A DNA stretch of 50,477 nucleotides. It comes from a virus (taxonomy: Duplodnaviria > Heunggongvirae > Uroviricota > Caudoviricetes). Every line of letters starts with the position of its first letter. Within the stretch, counting starts at the first letter, position 1. This document shows positions 698-36,582 of the stretch, in pieces. The notes below the pieces were generated by a model that was not told where the DNA came from, made no database searches, and was given only the letters and a program-made list of their open reading frames with translations. Location: the IMG/VR virus record IMGVR_UViG_2695420874_000004. One strand, given 5' to 3'. A program made the position numbers and the translations under genes.

Positions 698-1060
698 GGG
701 GCTGATTCTGGATTCGACGGGATTTGCGAAACCCAAGGTGCATGCCGAGGGGCGGTTGGCCTCGTAAAAAGCCGCAAAAAATAGTCGCAAACGACGAAAA
801 CTACGCTTTAGCAGCTTAATAACCTGCTTAGAGCCCTCTCTCCCTAGCCTCCGCTCTTAGGACGGGGATCAAGAGAGGTCAAACCCAAAAGAGATCGCGT
901 GGAAGCCCTGCCTGGGGTTGAAGCGTTAAAACTTAATCAGGCTAGTTTGTTAGTGGCGTGTCCGTCCGCAGCTGGCAAGCGAATGTAAAGACTGACTAAG
1001 CATGTAGTACCGAGGATGTAGGAATTTCGGACGCGGGTTCAACTCCCGCCAGCTCCACCA
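698..1060 (+). ncRNA. ssrA: tmRNA (transfer-messenger RNA, SsrA)
   Basis: Starts GGGGCTGATTCTGGATTCGACGGG and ends with a tRNA-like acceptor arm ...GGTTCAACTCCCGCCAGCTCCACCA; contains the tag reading frame GCAAACGACGAAAACTACGCTTTAGCAGCTTAA (ANDENYALAA*). 363 nt. Confidence 0.93.
1016..1060. repeat. attL core: 3' end of ssrA, repeated at 36413..36457
   Basis: 45-bp sequence ATGTAGGAATTTCGGACGCGGGTTCAACTCCCGCCAGCTCCACCA is present identically at 36413..36457. Confidence 0.75.
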
Positions 1061-1070
1061 AATAAATCAA

Positions 1071-1103
1071 GGGGTTACGTGAAAGCGTAGCCCCTTTTTC
1101 TTT
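1071..1103 (+). terminator. Putative rho-independent terminator downstream of ssrA
   Basis: Stem GGGGTTACG / CGTAGCCCC (one G-U pair) followed by TTTTTCTTT, directly after the tmRNA 3' end, in prophage-derived DNA. Confidence 0.5.
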
Positions 1104-1183
1104 GGTAGTGGCGGCAAAATGGCGACAGACTTTTGCGTCCATCTTGCCTGTCGCCATCTTGAAATCATGCAAAGAGGTTTCAC

Positions 1184-1666
1184 ATGGAAGAACTTCACTT
1201 TGTTTACATCAATGCAAATGGTCGTATCGGTGTTCACTCAATACAGAGCATCAGTTATAGCGAAAATCATATACAGGGCATTTGTAAGAACACCGATCGA
1301 ATAAAAACCTTCCGAAAAGACCGCATTCTTAAACAGTACGATTCACCAGAACAAGCCATTCAGGAATGCGCGTCATTCCTCCCCGAAAACTACTCACATC
1401 TCACTAAGCAGTCTGGTCCGAAAAAAAATACATTCGATGTGTGCTTCACCGGATTTAAGAAAGCAGATAAAGAAAGATTAGTTGATAAGGCGAATGAACA
1501 AGGATTAACGGTAAGAACCTCTGTAACCCAAAGCCTTCAGATGCTCTGTTGCGGTTACAATGCAGGCCCATCAAAAGTATCGGCAGCCAGGATGAAAGGC
1601 ACAATCATCATAGATGAGCCTGGCTTTATACATTTTCTTGAAACGGGTGAGATCCCAGATGAATAA
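1184..1666 (+). CDS. Cargo protein with WYL-like N-terminal region and BRCT-like C-terminal domain
   Basis: ORF with AGAGG Shine-Dalgarno-like sequence upstream; N-terminal ...GRIGVHSIQSIS...DRIKTFRKDRI resembles the WYL signature (R-x-F-R-x-D-R-I); C-terminal TFDVCFTGF...GLTVRTSVTQ...GYNAGPSKVSAARMKGTIIIDEPGFIHFL follows the BRCT pattern of LigA. Sits between attL and ogr where P2 has no gene. Confidence 0.5.
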   Translation: MEELHFVYINANGRIGVHSIQSISYSENHIQGICKNTDRIKTFRKDRILKQYDSPEQAIQECASFLPENYSHLTKQSGPKKNTFDVCFTGFKKADKERLVDKANEQGLTVRTSVTQSLQMLCCGYNAGPSKVSAARMKGTIIIDEPGFIHFLETGEIPDE

Positions 1667-1694
1667 AAACCTGCCGTAGCAGGTTCTCTTTCTC
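1660..1694. terminator. Putative bidirectional terminator between the WYL/BRCT gene and ogr
   Basis: Hairpin AACCTGC-CGTA-GCAGGTT flanked by an A-run on one side and a T-rich run on the other; lies between two convergent stop codons. Confidence 0.45.
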
Positions 1695-1908
1695 AAAAAT
1701 TCATATGCCCCTGACCACCTGGCAATGGATGTGGAGGGGCTGTAGCAATCAATGCAGGTGCCACAATAAACCGGACCACTGTTTCATGGGTAACAAAAGT
1801 GCTCCCGCAGTTAATATTTTGGCACTGGCAGTAACGCTCTTTGGTGCTTTCTGTTACTTGAAAACTGCTCCTTGTGTGCGCCGCATGACCACACTTCGGA
1901 CAATTCAT
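1693..1908 (-). CDS. ogr: Ogr-like zinc-finger late-gene transcription activator
   Basis: MNCPKCGHAAHTRSS...CQCQNINCGSTF has the Cys4 arrangement and strong similarity to P2 Ogr; start trimmed to the second of two adjacent Met codons (the one aligning with the P2 Ogr N-terminus). Confidence 0.8.
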   Translation of the reverse strand: MNCPKCGHAAHTRSSFQVTESTKERYCQCQNINCGSTFVTHETVVRFIVAPALIATAPPHPLPGGQGHMNF

Positions 1909-1979
1909 CATATCCAGATCCCTACCTTTGCTATCAGAATCATTGTAATGATACACAAAATATCAATATTGAGAACACT

Positions 1980-8959: not shown

Positions 8960-9526
8960 TCAGGGAGATTCATTGCTCTTATTTGCCGGAAATTTTCGAT
9001 AAATGGTAGAAACGCCTACATCAAAAATCAGTGCAATACGCTGTCTTGATTCTCCGGCCTCGAGTAAACGCCCAATCTGTGCCCACTGTTCGCTGGTCAA
9101 CTTAGGACGGCGTCCACCTACTCTGCCTTTAACACGAGCTGCAGCCAGCCCTGCCCTGGTACGTTCAACTATCAGTTCGCGTTCCATTTCAGCCAGGGCA
9201 CCCATGACATGAAAAAAGAAACGGCCCATTGGGGTACTGGTATCAATACTGTCAGTCAGGCTTCGGAAATTCACGCCACGCTGGCGCAACTCTTCTATCA
9301 GCGTAACAAGATGCCGCATACTGCGCCCCAACCTGTCCAGCTTCCAGACAACCAGCGTGTCTCCTGCCGATAGTGTCCTGAGCAGTTTTTTCAGCCCCGG
9401 TCTGTCGGACTTAGTGCCACTGATTTTGTCCTCAAAAATCCGCTCACATCCCGCGCAGTTCAGTGCATTACGTTGCAAATCGGTGTTCTGGTCATTTGTT
9501 GACACGCGTACATAGCCAATAAGCAT
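8960..9526 (-). CDS. Site-specific DNA invertase, Gin/Cin/Pin/Hin family serine recombinase
   Basis: MLIGYVRVSTNDQNTDLQRNAL...LVVWKLDRLGRSMRHL...GRFFFHVMGALAEMEREL... is near-identical in pattern to Gin/Cin; start trimmed to the Met aligning with Gin. Confidence 0.9.
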   Translation of the reverse strand: MLIGYVRVSTNDQNTDLQRNALNCAGCERIFEDKISGTKSDRPGLKKLLRTLSAGDTLVVWKLDRLGRSMRHLVTLIEELRQRGVNFRSLTDSIDTSTPMGRFFFHVMGALAEMERELIVERTRAGLAAARVKGRVGGRRPKLTSEQWAQIGRLLEAGESRQRIALIFDVGVSTIYRKFPANKSNESP

Positions 9527-9581
9527 GATCATCCCCCTGAATAAAAACCGGAGATGATGCCAGTTAGCCGTAATCTCTGCA

Positions 9582-9607
9582 TTTTCTTAAACGTTGGTTT
9601 GGGAGAA
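9582..9607. repeat. Invertase crossover site (gix/hix-like), left
   Basis: TTTTCTTAAACG TT GGTTTGGGAGAA: 26-bp site with two 12-bp half-sites; its right half is the reverse complement of the left half of the site at 11424..11449. Confidence 0.6.
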
Positions 9608-9943
9608 TTATCTCTGGCTGGCACTGCATCGGGTGTCATTGGTCTGAATGGGTATGTAACGATTCCGTTAATTATTTCAGGTTCCCGGAGAACACTGATT
9701 ATTCAGTGGGGGCAGGCGAGATTTGGTGGGTCTGGTGGTGAAGATGCCGGATATCTTAATGATTTTCCTTTTGCCTTTCCGTCAGCATGTTATGGAATGA
9801 TAGTTAGTCATGTGGGGCATACACCTTCAGGCGCAGGAATCCTGTCGGCTTCTGCAATTACATCAAATCAGTTCCGCGGTTTTTCAAGCATAGCGACTGC
9901 TGCAAACGCTGTATTAGGTCGTTATATCGCTATAGGGGTGTAA
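9608..9943 (+). CDS. Alternative tail-fibre C-terminal segment (promoterless in this orientation; 5' part supplied by H after inversion)
   Basis: ORF begins at the crossover site and ends 1 bp before the opposite-orientation assembly gene; Gly/Ser-rich fibre-tip-like composition. Coordinates approximate. Confidence 0.45.
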   Translation, partial: LSLAGTASGVIGLNGYVTIPLIISGSRRTLIIQWGQARFGGSGGEDAGYLNDFPFAFPSACYGMIVSHVGHTPSGAGILSASAITSNQFRGFSSIATAANAVLGRYIAIGV

Positions 9944-9944
9944 T

Positions 9945-10382
9945 ATGTTTTATAGTCCATCTTTAAACATTTTTGTGAATCCTGCACTTAAGGATGATTA
10001 CATTAATGCAAATTCATGGCCAGATGATGCTCTGGCTGTCAGTGATGATGTTTATAATGAATTTGCAATAAATACGCCCCCAGATGGCAAAATTCGTGTT
10101 GCAGGAGAAAATGGATTACCCACATGGGCACTAATACCTCCACCATCACATGAAGAACTTATTCAACAGGCAGAATCAGAAAGGCAATTATTGCTTAATC
10201 TGGCCAACGAATACATGAACAGTAAACAATGGCCCGGTAAAGCCGCTATTGGTCGTCTGAAAGACGAGGAACTGGCGCAATATAATTTGTGGCTGGATTA
10301 CCTGGACGCACTGGAGCTGGTTGATACCTCCAGTGGGCCAGATATTGAATGGCCTACGCCTCCGGCAGTTCAGGCCAGATGA
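9945..10382 (+). CDS. Alternative tail fibre assembly protein (G'/U'-like)
   Basis: 145-aa ORF; C-terminal ...LWLDYLDALELVDTSSGPDIEWPTPP parallels the C-terminus of the minus-strand assembly protein (...LDYIDAVTATDTSTAPDVIWPELP). Confidence 0.65.
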   Translation: MFYSPSLNIFVNPALKDDYINANSWPDDALAVSDDVYNEFAINTPPDGKIRVAGENGLPTWALIPPPSHEELIQQAESERQLLLNLANEYMNSKQWPGKAAIGRLKDEELAQYNLWLDYLDALELVDTSSGPDIEWPTPPAVQAR

Positions 10383-24752: not shown

Positions 24753-25442
24753 TCATATGAGACGACCGTCTGGACTTCTGTTACCTAAATGTAATTCACA
24801 GAGTATCCACCTAATCACATCAGGTCGAATTAACCCAGCTACAAAAACCGAATTCCAATTATTTTTACCTTTATGTTTTTCATCCAACAGCAACAACTCG
24901 CGAGTCAACAACTCATATACATCGCTATAAGTAGAAAGACTCTTATTCAGTCCTCTAATAACAAGCTCAGGATATAAGTAAAACGACTCCCATTGTTCAG
25001 ACAAATACCCCTTAATATTATTCTTGATAACAACATTATCAAGATGATACTTAACATTGTTATATTCTGGTGACATTGGGTCAATTATGATTTTTACATC
25101 AATTGTAGGTGTTCGCCCTAATTTAGAAAAATTAGCACATATTAATCTTTGTTTTAATATATTATCAAAATATGGATGCAGCATCCGATGGCCTGCAGAA
25201 TTAGCTATAGTAGTACTTTTGAAAGTATTACATTTGCAAGCAGGAACCAAATTCTTAGTGAATAAAGAAAATTCTGGATAGTTTTCCTTGGGTAAAACAT
25301 GATCCAAAGTCCCGCTATGCATTGAACCACACATTGGACATAGAGAGTTAGAATTAGCTGCTCTTATATCATCAATTATAGATAAACACTTTGCGGGATT
25401 GTTATAATAATATCTCAAAGCTTCAGCAATATTGTTACTCAA
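24753..25442 (-). CDS. HNH endonuclease-like protein (candidate Septu PtuB-like effector)
   Basis: CPMCGSMHSGTLDHVLPKENYPEF...NLVPACKCN has the C-x2-C / DH / N / C-x-C-N arrangement of HNH nucleases; AT-rich; no ATG at the 5' end (probable TTG start). Confidence 0.7.
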   Translation of the reverse strand: MSNNIAEALRYYYNNPAKCLSIIDDIRAANSNSLCPMCGSMHSGTLDHVLPKENYPEFSLFTKNLVPACKCNTFKSTTIANSAGHRMLHPYFDNILKQRLICANFSKLGRTPTIDVKIIIDPMSPEYNNVKYHLDNVVIKNNIKGYLSEQWESFYLYPELVIRGLNKSLSTYSDVYELLTRELLLLDEKHKGKNNWNSVFVAGLIRPDVIRWILCELHLGNRSPDGRLI

Positions 25443-25616
25443 TACGCCACAAGAATTGACATTAAGATACCCTTTATTCTTTATGTACGATCTATATGCA
25501 TTAAGTATAAATGTATCCTGTTCATTCAGAACAGAATGATGTTTTAATCTCTTATTTGCAGATAGTTTTTAAATGCAGAATAATCTTTAAAAACAGGTCT
25601 TTTTAATTTATTCATT

Positions 25617-27266
25617 TCAATTGCCCATTTCATTTCTCAACGCAGTTAATACATTAAGTGATAAGTCCTCGCTATATTTAGATTCAACATCATCCCAAGA
25701 CATATTCTTTGCAATTATATTATTTTTTACTTTATTTAAAATTTGAGTTGGTTCACTCTCACCGAAAACAAAATATGAGATATTTCCTATATTCGCCCCA
25801 AAAGTACTCAATCTCGGTTTTTCGCTAACAATTACCCCATCATCTCGTCTTCTGAGTATTGTCACTTGCTCCTTAAAAACCTCCCGAACAAGATAAACCG
25901 AATGCGTTGCTATGATAGCTGAAGAGCCTGTCTTTTCTAATAAATTATCAAGCAATGCCATAAATTTATTAATAAATGAAGGATGGAGATGTGTTTCTGG
26001 CTCATCTATTAATAGAAGAGTCCCATTCTCAATATACAAACAGACTTGTACACAAAACTTAATAAACGATATTTCCCCACTACTCAAAGGATAACATTTA
26101 TTTTCAATAAGCCTCAAAGGCTCGCCAGAGAGAATAATTTCAGAATATAATGATAGTCTGGATTCTTCGCCTCGAGAATTAAGCTCATTTAATTTAACAA
26201 ATGGTGAATTTTCACCGTTACATTTGATTACTAAATCGTTGTTACTATTTAGAACACTCAGTGCATCAACAAATATATTCCACCTTTGATTATAGCCGAT
26301 AGCGTCGTTACTCCTCGCTAGTTGCACTATTAAATCATTCAAGTTTAATTTGGATTTTGATTCACGATTTAAAGTCAATCTTTTGTACCATATCAATGAT
26401 TTTATTCTTTTATCGGTTGGAAATGAACACTTACTTTCATTTGTTGGAGAAAAAGCAATGAGCCTACTAATTTGAATTCGTTCTTCAATGCTCACACCGT
26501 TAGAATCAACTACAGCCACCAAATTATCCTTTCCTTTAATCGCAGCCAATGCGATTTCTCTAAGCGTTTGGCTTTTTCCTACACCATTCTCGCCTATAAT
26601 TATGGAAATTCTTTTTGGTAAATCATGCTCGTGATCAAAATTAAAAACATAAGATACATCTTCTTCATTAACTTTATTCGAATAGCTAATCTTGATGTGC
26701 TGTGATAAATTACCCAACTCCTCATATTGAATACCGGAAAGAACTGTTCCTGCATTTTTGAAAGTAAAATACGACTCAGACTCTCTAATGAAAGATTTAT
26801 TAAAGATATCAGAAGAGATTGCTTTTTTCCTCAAATTCTCTGCACTAGCGTCACTTTTCTTAGAAACAACATCATTAATGAAATTTAATATATATTTGGA
26901 TTCATTCACCCCAAAAAATCTTACTAGTCTTCGATAATTATTCATATCCTGAAGCATGACAAAATAATCATTAAACCCCTCATCCTTTAAATTAGATTCT
27001 TCCTTTTTCTTCACTCGCCTTATCAGTTCTGCTTTTCCATTTCGTTCCTCCTCTGAATTCAAAAAACCAATATAACCATTCAGTGAAATTATATCCTTAC
27101 ACTCTTTTTTATTAAAAATAGATATTTCGACTCTACTCAAATATCCAAAATCATTCCAATCGCTTCTTGATGGGACTATTTTTATATAATTACCAGAATC
27201 AGATATCTGTTGATTATTTGTAATTAAAAAATATAAACTATAATTTTTATTTTTCTTGACTAACAT
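25617..27266 (-). CDS. ABC/AAA15-type ATPase (candidate Septu PtuA-like) with about 200-aa N-terminal extension
   Basis: Walker A IIIGENGVGKSQTL, ABC-signature-like LSSGE, Walker B/D-loop LLLIDEPETHLHP; AT-rich. Confidence 0.8.
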   Translation of the reverse strand: MLVKKNKNYSLYFLITNNQQISDSGNYIKIVPSRSDWNDFGYLSRVEISIFNKKECKDIISLNGYIGFLNSEEERNGKAELIRRVKKKEESNLKDEGFNDYFVMLQDMNNYRRLVRFFGVNESKYILNFINDVVSKKSDASAENLRKKAISSDIFNKSFIRESESYFTFKNAGTVLSGIQYEELGNLSQHIKISYSNKVNEEDVSYVFNFDHEHDLPKRISIIIGENGVGKSQTLREIALAAIKGKDNLVAVVDSNGVSIEERIQISRLIAFSPTNESKCSFPTDKRIKSLIWYKRLTLNRESKSKLNLNDLIVQLARSNDAIGYNQRWNIFVDALSVLNSNNDLVIKCNGENSPFVKLNELNSRGEESRLSLYSEIILSGEPLRLIENKCYPLSSGEISFIKFCVQVCLYIENGTLLLIDEPETHLHPSFINKFMALLDNLLEKTGSSAIIATHSVYLVREVFKEQVTILRRRDDGVIVSEKPRLSTFGANIGNISYFVFGESEPTQILNKVKNNIIAKNMSWDDVESKYSEDLSLNVLTALRNEMGN

Positions 27267-27558: not shown

Positions 27559-27792
27559 TTAATGCAGCCAGCTGTCGTCTTCCCACACCTTCTGCATAAT
27601 TTTCATCACTTGTTTTCTTTCTTCGTCCAGTTGCAATCCGGTAAGTTCCACACCGTTAGAGCTACCTTTGCGGATACGAATTACCGTTTTGGGATACAGA
27701 GGGCGCAGATTGCGGTAAAGCTCGGATTCAAGGGCGTCCAGGGTAGACTGGCTAATCTTCTGCTCTTTATCGATCATTATTTCAATGCGCAT
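27559..27792 (-). CDS. DinI-like protein
   Basis: 77 aa: MRIEIMIDKEQ...DALESELYRNL...WEDDSWLH parallels E. coli DinI (MRIEVTIAK...DALAGELSRRI...WESADDWF). Confidence 0.75.
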   Translation of the reverse strand: MRIEIMIDKEQKISQSTLDALESELYRNLRPLYPKTVIRIRKGSSNGVELTGLQLDEERKQVMKIMQKVWEDDSWLH

Positions 27793-27803
27793 AAAAAGTC
27801 ACC

Positions 27804-27992
27804 TCAACTGATGACATCCATTGAGCGGTTGTATTCGTGGGTTCTGATTTTTGCCATGAGTTCATCTGTTAGTTCAGAAACCCACTGCAAAGCCAGCCCC
27901 TTCTCTTCATCACTACACTCACTAGCCGCTACAAGCTTAAGAAAAAAATCAATGCGCTGGAGCTTCAAAGACTCCAAAAAATAGTCCTGCAT
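27804..27992 (-). CDS. Small hypothetical protein upstream of the DinI-like gene
   Basis: Short ORF between A and the DinI-like gene on the same strand; start chosen at the internal ATG (MQDYFLES...). Confidence 0.4.
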   Translation of the reverse strand: MQDYFLESLKLQRIDFFLKLVAASECSDEEKGLALQWVSELTDELMAKIRTHEYNRSMDVIS

Positions 27993-28145
27993 CTTTCCTC
28001 CTATGACACCACAAGAAATACTGTATACATAACCACTGTTTATATTTACAGTATATAATAATCTTACTGATGTAAAACGTTTTTTTACGTTCATCAGCCT
28101 GATATGCCTTGTATTATTAAGAGCACGAATTGTTAACCCGCGTAA

Positions 28146-33588: not shown

Positions 33589-34239
33589 TTGTCAAATGGA
33601 GAGTTCATCTTGAAGATTAATACAGGTGCAAATACGGGAGGGAGAGAGACCATCAAAAGGCTGATGACAGCCTATGGTTTCAACACTCAGATAGCGTTGG
33701 TTGAACACCTCGAAGCATCAAAAAGCACCATGGCAAACAGGATGTTACGTGATAGCTTCCCTGCTGACTGGGTTATTCAATGTGCCCTTGAAACAGGTAT
33801 TTCTCTTCTTTGGCTGACAACGGGCCAAGGGGAAATGTATCCTCAAACAGAAGAAAAAAATAAGTTCAAAAACGAGAGTTCACCTACAGTTCGCCCCCTT
33901 TCAAAGATAGTTATCCCATCAGTAAGGCAGGCAACTATTGAGAACGGAACTCTCGAAGAGATGGGGGATGTTTTCCTTGATCAGACTTTGATACCCGGAA
34001 AAGCCGAATATTGTTTGTACGTCAAAGCTAACGACGGCAATTACATTGTTGATACATCAACAAAACAGCTTAGTAACGGAATTTGGCTCATAGACATCGA
34101 CGGTATGAAAAACATCGTCAAAATTGCGCGCATACCTGGAAACAAAATAGTAGTTAACCAAGATGACACGTCATTTGAATGTTCTGTAGATGATGTGGAA
34201 GTCGTAGGACGTGCAGTCAAAGTAATCAAGAACCTCTAA
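33589..34239 (+). CDS. CI-type immunity repressor (phage 186 CI-like)
   Basis: ...AYGFNTQIALVEHLEASKSTMANRM...CALETGISLLWLTTGQGE parallels the 186 CI N-terminal DNA-binding region as I recall it. Confidence 0.8.
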   Translation: MSNGEFILKINTGANTGGRETIKRLMTAYGFNTQIALVEHLEASKSTMANRMLRDSFPADWVIQCALETGISLLWLTTGQGEMYPQTEEKNKFKNESSPTVRPLSKIVIPSVRQATIENGTLEEMGDVFLDQTLIPGKAEYCLYVKANDGNYIVDTSTKQLSNGIWLIDIDGMKNIVKIARIPGNKIVVNQDDTSFECSVDDVEVVGRAVKVIKNL

Positions 34240-34242
34240 CTT

Positions 34243-35262
34243 ATGACCATAAGAAAACAGCCGAACGGAAAATGGTTGTGTGAGTGCTATCCCAATGGAC
34301 GCAATGGTAAGCGCGTGCGTAAGCAATTTGCTACCAAAGGCGAAGCTATTGCATTTGAAAGCTTCACAATGGAAGAAGTGAACAAAAAACCATGGCTGGG
34401 GGAAAAGGAAGATCGGCGACATTTATCAGAATTAATTGAGCTGTGGTATTCCCTGTATGGTCAAACACTCACAGACCCCAAGCGCCTCATGGCGAAACTT
34501 AGTATTATCTGTAATGGTCTAGGCGATCCCATCGCTTCAGAACTGACAGCCGGTGACTTTACGAAATACCGCGAAGCACGGTTAAAAGGTGAAGTACGAA
34601 ATGAAGATGGCACGCTTATGTCGCCCGTTAAGCCCCGCACGGTAAACCTTGAACAGCGCAATCTATCATCTGTTTTTGGTACACTGAAAAAGCTGGGCCA
34701 CTGGTCAGCCCCCAACCCGCTTGCCGGGCTGCCAACATTTAAAATTGCTGAGAGTGAATTGGCGTTCCTGACCCCGGAAGAAATTAAACGTCTGCTGGAT
34801 GCCTGTGCTGATTCTCAAAGCTCTAGTCTGCTGACGGTTGCAAAAATATGTCTGGCCACCGGCGCGAGATGGAGTGAAGCCGAAAACCTGCAGGGCCATC
34901 AATTATCAAAATACCGGATCACTTACACCAAAACTAAAGGCAAGAAAAACCGAACCGTACCGATATCTCAGGAGCTATATGAAGAACTCCCCAAAAACAG
35001 AGGGAAACTATTCACGCCCTGCAGAAAAGCTTTTGAGCGCGCAGTAAAACGAGCCGGTATAGACCTGCCTGAAGGCCAGTGCACACACGTGTTGCGCCAT
35101 ACATTCGCCAGTCACTTCATGATGAATGGCGGAAACATATTGGTACTACGCGATATTCTTGGTCACTCTGATATAAAAATGACGATGGTTTATGCTCATT
35201 TTTCGCCAGATCATTTAGAAGATGCTGTAACAAAAAATCCACTGGCTATGTTGGGATACTGA
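34243..35262 (+). CDS. int: Tyrosine integrase (P2/186 Int family)
   Basis: 339 aa with C-terminal HVLRHTFASHFMMNGG...LGHSDIKMTMVYAHF catalytic box (R...H-x-x-R...Y). Confidence 0.92.
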   Translation: MTIRKQPNGKWLCECYPNGRNGKRVRKQFATKGEAIAFESFTMEEVNKKPWLGEKEDRRHLSELIELWYSLYGQTLTDPKRLMAKLSIICNGLGDPIASELTAGDFTKYREARLKGEVRNEDGTLMSPVKPRTVNLEQRNLSSVFGTLKKLGHWSAPNPLAGLPTFKIAESELAFLTPEEIKRLLDACADSQSSSLLTVAKICLATGARWSEAENLQGHQLSKYRITYTKTKGKKNRTVPISQELYEELPKNRGKLFTPCRKAFERAVKRAGIDLPEGQCTHVLRHTFASHFMMNGGNILVLRDILGHSDIKMTMVYAHFSPDHLEDAVTKNPLAMLGY

Positions 35263-35264
35263 TA

Positions 35265-36296
35265 ATGGAAAAAAGCATTAGCACATTTATGTACCTATCC
35301 GTTTTATTAGGTTGTATATTCTTATTTATAAAATATCGACTTTATGTTCTCGATCATAGAAGCTTGTTCCAACAACCCTTGTTCTGGGCTGCAATAGGCC
35401 TACCTTTATTCACCAGCCTTTACTTTGGTTCTTTTGTCTGGATAGATAAAATACACTCTTTTAGTCTTACAAGTCACGGTTATGAGAGATTTTTAGATAT
35501 CTCGAAATTACCATTACTCATCCTTGCATCTGCAGTACCTTTAGTTTCAATAGTAAACAACCTACACAGAACCAAACAAACAGAAAAACAGATCTCAGAG
35601 GCAGAAAGGAAAAACAGGGTAGATTTATATTACAACCACATGAAATTTCATCTTGATTTATATAAAAAAATCGAAGGGAAAAGAATAGGCAGCTACTACC
35701 CGGTTCAGGAAGCTCAAGCTGAAGCAATCTACCAACATTTTATAAAACATCCACAAGAACTATATAGAAAAGCATACCCACAATCTACGCCTGATGATTC
35801 TCAACAATTAGATATTAATGAGCAATTTGTTATTGATTTACACAAATGTTGGGTAGAAATCAACGCAAGACTCAAGCAATTATCCGAGAGTGAAAATCAA
35901 ATACATCCTACAGAGGAACTTTGCACAACAAAGATGAGAATATTTGTAGGAGTTATGATTATTTATGAAAAAACTTGTAAACTGTTGTGTTTAGGTGGAT
36001 TTCATTATAAAAAGTCATTTGTAATAAATGATAGTTATAATAAATACCAAGTTTATTCACCATTTTATGATTTTGGCACTCTGTACGAATCACTGCAATC
36101 CTTAGAAGAGATAACCTACGCCTTCTTGGATACTTGCAGAAATGAAGTGGTAAACTTGTACTTCCCTATAGAAGATAAAATTTTGATATATGGTGAAGGG
36201 ATTCTAGAGAATTGGTTCAAGTATTCTCAGTTCTTGATCACTATAGCTTATCAACCCGCCAAGATGTCTCGCTTACCCCAGCTGAGACGCGATTGA
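35265..36296 (+). CDS. Hypothetical membrane-anchored cargo protein between int and attR
   Basis: 343-aa AT-rich ORF starting 2 bp after the int stop; two N-terminal hydrophobic helices (LSVLLGCIFLFI, LFWAAIGLPLFTSLYFGSFVW) and a large soluble C-terminal part. Confidence 0.65.
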   Translation: MEKSISTFMYLSVLLGCIFLFIKYRLYVLDHRSLFQQPLFWAAIGLPLFTSLYFGSFVWIDKIHSFSLTSHGYERFLDISKLPLLILASAVPLVSIVNNLHRTKQTEKQISEAERKNRVDLYYNHMKFHLDLYKKIEGKRIGSYYPVQEAQAEAIYQHFIKHPQELYRKAYPQSTPDDSQQLDINEQFVIDLHKCWVEINARLKQLSESENQIHPTEELCTTKMRIFVGVMIIYEKTCKLLCLGGFHYKKSFVINDSYNKYQVYSPFYDFGTLYESLQSLEEITYAFLDTCRNEVVNLYFPIEDKILIYGEGILENWFKYSQFLITIAYQPAKMSRLPQLRRD

Positions 36297-36412: not shown

Positions 36413-36457
36413 ATGTAGGAATTTCGGACGCGGGTTCAACTCCCGCCAGCTCCACCA
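36413..36457. repeat. attR of the P2-like prophage / attL of the downstream island: partial ssrA 3' end
   Basis: Exact 45-bp copy of 1016..1060. Confidence 0.75.
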
Positions 36458-36582
36458 ATTTTTGATATATTGAAGTTCAGTGAAGTCTATCAAGCCCGCA
36501 TGGAACCAGCCTTGCGGGCTTTTTTACGTCTATAGTAGTCTACCGAGAATTGCTAGAATCTACTCGTTATGGCACCCTTTTT

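Follow-up and report, generated by a model that had tools for sequence, protein, structure and literature searches.

What does a 160-aa protein contribute to a 186/P2-like prophage that encodes it between the left attachment site and ogr, where P2 has no gene? The question is raised by positions 1184–1666 of the 50,477-nt stretch of viral DNA analyzed here, referred to as the window. An earlier note, made from the sequence, had described this open reading frame (ORF) as cargo whose product joins a WYL-like to a BRCT-like half. No functional study of a WYL-BRCT protein was found in literature searches.

The gene lies between attL and ogr of a prophage integrated in ssrA

The window opens with smpB (1–483), followed by ssrA. 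An exact 25-mer within the att core occurs at 1036–1060 and again at 36433–36457, and the att repeats bracket a 35.4-kb 186/P2-like prophage integrated in ssrA, whose left arm carries ogr, D, U and T. The features of this end are as follows.

698–1060, plus strand: ssrA (tmRNA), detected by ARAGORN
about 1016–1061, and again about 36413–36458: att core (46 nt), the 3′ end of ssrA, from the attL/attR alignment
1069–1096, plus strand: phage-supplied intrinsic ssrA terminator, 12-bp stem and T-run (−19.8 kcal/mol, z −4.8)
1108–1128, plus strand: conserved block GTGGCGGCAAAATGGCGACAG, containing the direct repeat GGCGRCA-N4-GGCGRCA
1173–1177, plus strand: Shine-Dalgarno sequence AGAGG, 6 nt ahead of the ATG of the ORF, from the sequence
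1184–1666, plus strand: WYL-BRCT coding sequence, ATG start, TAA stop, 160 aa, matched over its full length by phrog_2561 (2.2e-77)
1668–1685, both strands: hairpin terminator between the ORF and ogr
1693–1956, minus strand: ogr/delta-type late activator, convergent with the WYL-BRCT ORF

The mapping of the att repeats and of ogr confirmed the earlier placement of the ORF between attL and ogr. The gene starts 123 nt beyond the tmRNA 3′ end, past the phage-supplied terminator. The hairpin that separates it from ogr folds with −11.8 kcal/mol (z −3.8) on the plus strand and −18.4 kcal/mol (z −4.6) on the minus strand. Because it folds on both strands, preceded by an A-run and followed by a T-rich run, it can terminate transcription in both directions, and the fold energies agree with the bidirectional terminator that had been postulated at this place.

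The sequence 3′ of the reconstituted ssrA is phage DNA. Its terminator at 1069–1096 is kept, with compensatory changes in the stem, in five related ssrA prophages of Erwinia, Klebsiella, Plesiomonas, Tatumella and Citrobacter. In the integrated state the working ssrA uses this phage terminator, and the native one (36488–36527) remains with the displaced 3′ fragment at attR. The GTGGCGGCAAAATGGCGACAG block is nearly invariant in six ssrA prophages and the ∼50 nt that follow it are variable; the block probably serves Int as an arm-type site in attP. Shortly before the ORF, TGGCGACAG (1120–1128) and CTGTCGCCA (1148–1156) form a perfect 9-bp inverted repeat, seen in the window only.

The ORF is a genuine gene under strong purifying selection and not a chance reading frame. 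Its dN/dS against the homologue of phage Cartapus is 0.06, and against six prophages at ∼70% aa identity dN is about 0.2 with dS saturated. The exact same 160-aa protein occurs in at least 1000 contigs, and 171 of 5426 complete E. coli genomes carry the whole 1-kb region. Nearly all matches in an IMG/VR scan were near-identical E. coli prophages, so that independent synteny was not gained from them.

Between 1061 and 1190 there is no sigma-70-like promoter (8/12 or more matches), and no LexA box precedes the start codon of the WYL-BRCT gene. The ∼50 nt before the ORF start vary among related prophages. With no recognisable promoter, expression would need read-through of a terminator or an unrecognised promoter. 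In the lysogen, the source of such read-through would be ssrA; in the circular form it would be the cI-int operon. That operon lies at the far end of the prophage.

33589–36296, plus strand: lysogeny operon (Pfam)
33589–34239, plus strand: 186-type cI (Pfam)
34243–35262, plus strand: int (Pfam)
35265–36296, plus strand: orf343, cargo of unknown function, 343 aa, between int and attR

In the circular phage, attP and the WYL-BRCT gene come immediately after cI, int and orf343, with the four genes on one strand, and no clear terminator was found 3′ of orf343. The orf343 gene has a GC content of 34% and a full-length match to phrog_17460 (unknown function), with no Pfam or PADLOC match. Its slot holds a 401-aa ‘RES, NAD+ binding’ protein in Cartapus, which makes the int-attP interval look like a place for variable cargo.

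The protein joins a WYL-type barrel to a single BRCT domain

A WYL domain, a linker and a BRCT domain account for all 160 residues, with the WYL domain beginning at residue 3.

1184–1369, plus strand: WYL-type Sm-like beta-barrel, residues 1–62
1370–1432, plus strand: flexible basic linker, residues 63–83, pI 9.5; pLDDT falls to about 71, and its length varies in the alignment
1433–1651, plus strand: single BRCT domain of the LigA/RFC1 class, residues 84–156

Structure prediction, which had been suggested as a check, returned the complete two-domain fold with a pLDDT of 91.7 and a pTM of 0.52. The low pTM next to the high pLDDT, and the weaker linker, point to two domains that fold independently on a flexible basic tether. 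The protein as a whole is neutral (pI 6.95).

Residues 1–62 form a five-stranded Sm/SH3-like beta-barrel, with best fold matches to PafBC, CapW, BrxR and DriD. The window sequence by itself gave zero matches to PF13280 even at E≤10. Matches appear among its relatives, in 4 of 39 (best 1.5e-5) and in 24 of 45 (best 1.2e-8), and PADLOC WYL models match relatives down to 3.7e-9. The proposal of a WYL-like N-terminus is upheld by the fold matches and by these Pfam matches of family members; the profile search that was to support it succeeded with the relatives and not with the window sequence alone. Against solved structures the N-terminal profile had no significant match; the best one, 22 residues at E 3, is to the C-terminus of 8bnv, a chain named ‘AAA family ATPase’. 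The WYL identification was made by fold comparison because the sequence profile returned nothing significant against structures.

In a 39-sequence alignment, Y8 and T42 of this half are invariant and F43, R44 and D46 nearly so. The motif reads K41-T-F43-R44-K-D46-R47-I48. The R-x-F-R-x-D-R-I signature of the earlier note thus holds at all positions but the first, where this protein has K and homologues have R or K.

The WYL barrel is an ssDNA-binding module in CapW, DriD and PafBC, and the ssDNA-contacting residues of CapW have been mapped as S144, R164, R168 and R184. A sequence-level comparison, with no structural superposition, finds a plausible counterpart of these contacts in the family consensus for the FRxDR arginines alone. 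Both arginines occur in the window protein, R44 at a nearly invariant position and R47 as the motif's consensus residue. In CapW, arginines flank the W-Y-L strand; in the WYL-BRCT family the equivalent strand has the consensus H-I-Q-G-I-C, and those flanking arginines are missing.

The C-terminal half has the beta-alpha-beta-beta-alpha-beta-alpha fold of BRCT domains. With PF00533 the window protein scored 19.5 bits against a cut-off of 21.3 (E 0.0011), and 27 of 39 and 38 of 45 relatives matched (best 7.5e-21). Family profiles matched the BRCT domains of Thermus filiformis LigA and of RFC1 in the PDB (3e-5 and 1.5e-10). The BRCT assignment is marginal for the window sequence by itself and solid at the family level. 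T89, G90, F91 and K131 are invariant in the 39-sequence alignment; T89, G90 and K131 are the phosphate-pocket positions and align with FTG and GP.K of yeast RFC1. In RFC1, the Thr-Gly and Lys residues of this domain bind a 5′-phosphorylated DNA end (PDB 2k7f). Profiles, fold and pocket residues together bear out the BRCT domain of NAD-dependent ligase type that had been recognised by eye. Recent capture of the host LigA BRCT was considered and rejected: E. coli LigA is only a marginal profile match (E 0.05 and 0.0016). Among the stretches that the family conserves most is the tail LETGEIP(D/E) (1628–1663, residues 149–160), an acidic coil beyond the final helix of the BRCT domain that could serve as a short motif for protein docking.

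Searches of Pfam and NCBIfam found no helix-turn-helix (HTH) in the window protein, and it has neither a WCX domain nor a catalytic domain. It consists of two fused modules for nucleic-acid or phosphate binding and is not catalytic. Databases name it otherwise: ‘DNA ligase’ in phrog_2561 and RefSeq, which also has ‘BRCT domain-containing’, and ‘putative exonuclease’ in Cartapus; such names occur in GenBank as well. They are misnomers, because they rest on the BRCT domain and no catalytic domain is present. The LigA model TIGR00575 is matched solely at positions 549–650 of 652, and the DEDDh exonuclease model NF004719 solely at 229–307 of 331, with 26 bits against a cut-off of 389. The LigA adenylation (KxDG), OB-fold, Zn-finger and HhH domains are absent from the window protein, as is the DEDDh exonuclease domain. 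These names would lend themselves to reading the gene as a decayed, functionless fragment of a ligase or exonuclease gene. Such an origin is extremely improbable and was excluded, since only the BRCT part of either model is matched, the two-domain fold is complete at a pLDDT of 91.7, purifying selection is strong and hundreds of family clusters share the same architecture.

Many relatives carry a predicted membrane anchor

With clustering at 50% identity, an exhaustive profile search returned 207 family representatives at E≤1e-30; at 1e-10 the number is 899. Among the best 150 representatives, 88 are stand-alone proteins of <215 aa and 62 are longer (215 aa or more). Transmembrane (TM) helices, mostly one to three and N-terminal, are predicted in 43 of the 62 long ones, so that about 29% of these top representatives are membrane-anchored; none is predicted in the window protein. 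Basic residues typically follow the last TM helix, which would put the WYL-BRCT module in the cytoplasm. The absence of an HTH and the existence of anchored relatives argue against a classical WYL transcription regulator.

Other variants add a soluble N-terminal domain, a C-terminal domain (phrog_36782 type) or further BRCT domains. Apart from TM segments, the N-terminal extensions contain no Pfam domains, and the C-terminal ones are extra BRCT domains or have no assigned identity. A single HTH-like fusion (P0252) was judged by eye. With PADLOC, the window protein and ten longer relatives matched no known defence family besides the BRCT domain that they have in common with the candidate PDC-S48.

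The gene usually follows the repressor gene

P2 indeed lacks a gene at this place, as had been claimed: its ogr-int gap is 215 nt with no annotated gene. The WYL-BRCT gene is likewise missing from the Fels-2-like SEN8 and from most ogr-bearing phages; 28 phage records have it and 222 have an ogr homologue. The label ‘cargo’ therefore stands in the sense of accessory relative to P2, but not in the sense of a recent moron. The GC content of the gene is 41%, compared with 42% for the phage cI, 54–57% for structural genes and 32–34% for evident cargo, and its divergence is about the same as that of D, U, ogr, int and cII. GC content and divergence mark it as an old resident, and in distant P2-like phages it belongs firmly to the repressor-integrase module.

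Many of 55 genome loci are ordered cII (opposite strand), cI, WYL-BRCT, optional extra genes, int. The gene follows the repressor gene immediately, on its strand, in Mannheimia phage PHL101 and Vibrio phage PV94; in Burkholderia phages it is one gene further downstream, again on the strand of the repressor. The gap to the upstream gene is mostly −21 to +40 nt. Among same-strand upstream neighbours (n = 32), the 186-type repressor domain Phage_CI_repr occurs in 12, Peptidase_S24 together with an HTH in 7 and HTH_3 in 9, with several further HTH families in a few neighbours each. The post-repressor position holds for two unrelated repressor types, and both membrane-anchored forms (loci L043, L048, L052 and L063) and extended forms occupy the same slot. 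The downstream neighbours are many unrelated singletons, so there is no conserved partner gene. One locus (L066) has defence-like cargo, a TIR/SEFIR protein in the repressor-int interval and a NOV_C protein just past int. One homologue outside P2-like phages lies in an integrase island, adjoining an Mrr nuclease gene and with a DNA methylase gene near. At three loci a protein of ∼210–270 aa is encoded between the repressor and a soluble WYL-BRCT gene (L071, 5317–5955; L001, 3215–3964; L065, 4169–4975). It has a Flk_N match in L071 and a hydrophobic stretch, TM-like by eye, in L001; these interposed proteins might be the separate-gene counterpart of the fused membrane anchor.

The window clade (69% identity or more) departs from this order, with the gene across attP and beside ogr. 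The circular order in the free phage Cartapus is cI, int, cargo (a RES-domain protein), att, then WYL-BRCT facing ogr. Most lineages have the order repressor, WYL-BRCT, (variable cargo), int, and in that of E. coli, Klebsiella and Citrobacter the gene has shifted to the other side of attP. Once integrated, it consequently stands alone beside ssrA and ogr, split from the cI-int operon though its strand is kept.

The tight coupling to two unrelated repressor types, with stop and start codons that sometimes overlap, could point to a sensor of DNA damage or ssDNA by which the lysis-lysogeny switch is tuned. Its WYL domain would recognise ssDNA and its BRCT domain the 5′ end at a gap junction, the same structure that RecFOR uses for RecA loading; the protein would then modulate the RecA*-dependent signal, up or down, or else target the co-expressed repressor itself. 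Induction of both repressor types ultimately depends on RecA*, S24 repressors by self-cleavage and 186-type ones via a LexA-controlled antirepressor, which fits this alternative. Characterised WYL proteins detect ssDNA as a damage signal, and the GC content and divergence of the gene are like those of regulatory genes. A 2026 preprint independently noted cI-plus-BRCT modules in Roseobacter prophages and read them as DNA-damage regulators, a proposal only. We nevertheless consider damage sensing, the chief competitor of the reading favoured below, rather unlikely. The anchors on ∼29% of the top representatives are hard to square with a chromosomal gap or a soluble repressor, the protein has no HTH, and in the E. 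coli lineage the coupling to cI is lost on integration. Moreover, the window prophage already has a LexA-boxed operon with a DinI-like protein, and with self-cleaving S24 repressors elsewhere a second damage sensor is not obviously needed.

The order repressor, WYL-BRCT, int also accommodates a helper of lysogeny establishment, expressed early with cI and int, that would attach to recombination intermediates or the nicked cos junction and bring in or stabilise host factors, LigA for example; the LigA type of the BRCT domain speaks for it. We regard this role as improbable, as P2, the Fels-2-like SEN8 and most ogr-bearing phages lysogenise without the gene, and it leaves the membrane-anchored forms without account.

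A possible exclusion factor that acts by binding DNA ends

The family is normally found right behind the immunity repressor gene, so its proteins probably act on DNA in the lysogen and not as enzymes. We propose, with a probability of roughly 35%, that WYL-BRCT is a lysogen-expressed, non-catalytic binder of ssDNA and 5′-phosphate DNA ends that excludes incoming DNA. The protein would be made in the lysogen, co-transcribed with the repressor in most lineages; in the window prophage it would be expressed via read-through past the terminator of the very active ssrA, or from an unrecognised promoter. Like its nearest relatives in structure, the WYL domain would hold ssDNA, and the BRCT pocket, like that of RFC1 and LigA, would hold the adjacent 5′-phosphate. 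Such targets would include cohesive ends, as brought in by cos phages or satellites, and DNA with gaps or nicks, met in the cytoplasm or, for anchored relatives, at the inner face of the membrane. DNA bound in this way would be kept from circularization, ligation and use, and superinfection exclusion or prophage defence would follow without cutting.

We favour exclusion on three grounds: some relatives are membrane-anchored, the gene occupies a place where exclusion genes are typically found, and its neighbourhoods are rich in defence-like genes. In lambda, rexAB follows cI immediately, and lactococcal and streptococcal sie/ltp genes are found between those for repressor and integrase. Both are precedents for membrane-associated exclusion genes at the repressor-int position.

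Several observations speak against exclusion. The window protein has no membrane anchor and a neutral pI, the gene has no recognisable promoter and a strong terminator in front of it, and PADLOC finds no defence family match beyond the PDC-S48 BRCT. The family evolves slowly, in the manner of core genes and unlike many exclusion genes. The CapW-type arginines beside the WYL-equivalent strand are missing, and by sequence the FRxDR arginines alone seem comparable. Finally, the reading of cI-plus-BRCT modules in the 2026 preprint is a regulatory one.

Binding of ssDNA or ends could also serve the phage's own protection. As an anti-defence sponge or cap, the protein would sequester ssDNA fragments or DNA ends, so that CapW/BrxR-type ssDNA alarms or end-dependent nucleases are not triggered by the phage's own DNA. 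The barrel has the same ligand-binding fold as the host ssDNA alarm regulators, with the output domain missing, and end-binding by the BRCT domain could cap DNA ends. We give this little credence: the gene belongs to the lysogenic and not the lytic operon, a protein of neutral pI and presumably low copy number makes a poor sponge, and membrane anchoring is left without account.

Extended from the window protein to the family, exclusion by end binding would make WYL-BRCT a widespread, previously unrecognised class of exclusion factors that recognise ssDNA next to a 5′-phosphate, free or membrane-tethered, and are kept beside P2-like repressors. This generalization is put forward tentatively, as a possibility that we hold to be somewhat doubtful.

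Relation to known systems

WYL-BRCT lies outside the wHTH-WYL-WCX regulators, LigA, the DEDDh exonucleases and PDC-S48, and lacks part of the defining features of each. With the regulators (CapW, BrxR, DriD and PafBC) it shares the WYL fold; having neither the winged helix nor the WCX dimerisation domain, it is not a transcription factor of that type. The best sequence matches to its C-terminal half are the LigA and RFC1 BRCT domains, which have the same fold and the same Thr-Gly and Lys pocket. The BRCT domain is all that they have in common, as the adenylation, OB, zinc-finger, HhH and AAA+ modules of these proteins are absent from WYL-BRCT. With PDC-S48 it shares the C-terminal BRCT domain (the window protein at E 1.8e-7, relatives at down to 1.9e-13); only profile positions about 297–406 of 411 align, and the WYL half has no counterpart.

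Lambda rexAB, lactococcal sie and streptococcal ltp use the same slot as the family, after the repressor and before int, with lysogen expression presumed. They are unrelated to WYL-BRCT in sequence and fold and are not known to have such nucleic-acid-binding domains. Most distant homologues have the exclusion-gene location beside repressor and integrase genes, and in the window the gene is displaced from it across att.

The fusion itself is already known. Makarova et al. (2014; PMC4012209) listed it among WYL fusions, with the same architecture, as a catalogue entry without phage context, anchored forms or function. The phage context, the anchored forms and the post-repressor position are new.

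WYL domains have so far been understood as ssDNA-sensing switches coupled to transcription factors or nucleases. In WYL-BRCT, such a sensor would be coupled solely to a BRCT domain that binds DNA ends, often plus a membrane anchor. If exclusion by end binding is true, it would be a new defence principle, carried by common prophages of E. coli, Klebsiella, Yersinia, Vibrio, Burkholderia and Mannheimia; if tuning of induction is true instead, the family would provide a RecA/LexA-independent input to the lysis-lysogeny decision. The family is large and coherent with a distinctive genomic signature, and a small single-gene protein is easily tested. The present analysis also corrects a misannotation, as the wrong names DNA ligase and exonuclease are propagating in databases.

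Other features of the prophage

A near-consensus LexA box, TACTGTAAATATAAACAGT (about 28033–28052, minus strand), lies upstream of two ORFs within 27559–28052.

27992–27804, minus strand: ORF of 62 aa
27792–27559, minus strand: DinI-like ORF of 77 aa; E 2.7e-6 against E. coli DinI (PDB 1ghh)

The pair is similar to the SOS-controlled tum operon of phage 186, but the two halves are separate genes here. A LexA-boxed, tum-like operon suggests that the prophage is probably SOS-inducible via an antirepressor.

The position of P2 old/tin (24753–27266, minus strand) is taken by a two-gene defence candidate, with both genes at 32–33% GC: a 548-aa AAA_21/PtuA-like ATPase (PADLOC PDC-M01A, 2e-55) and a 228-aa HNH-like protein (PDC-M01B, 9e-32). 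A serine DNA invertase (Resolvase and HTH_7; 8960–9532, minus strand) adjoins a tail-fibre C-terminal fragment and a tail-fibre assembly gene (9554–10382, plus strand), an arrangement that suggests an invertible host-range switch.
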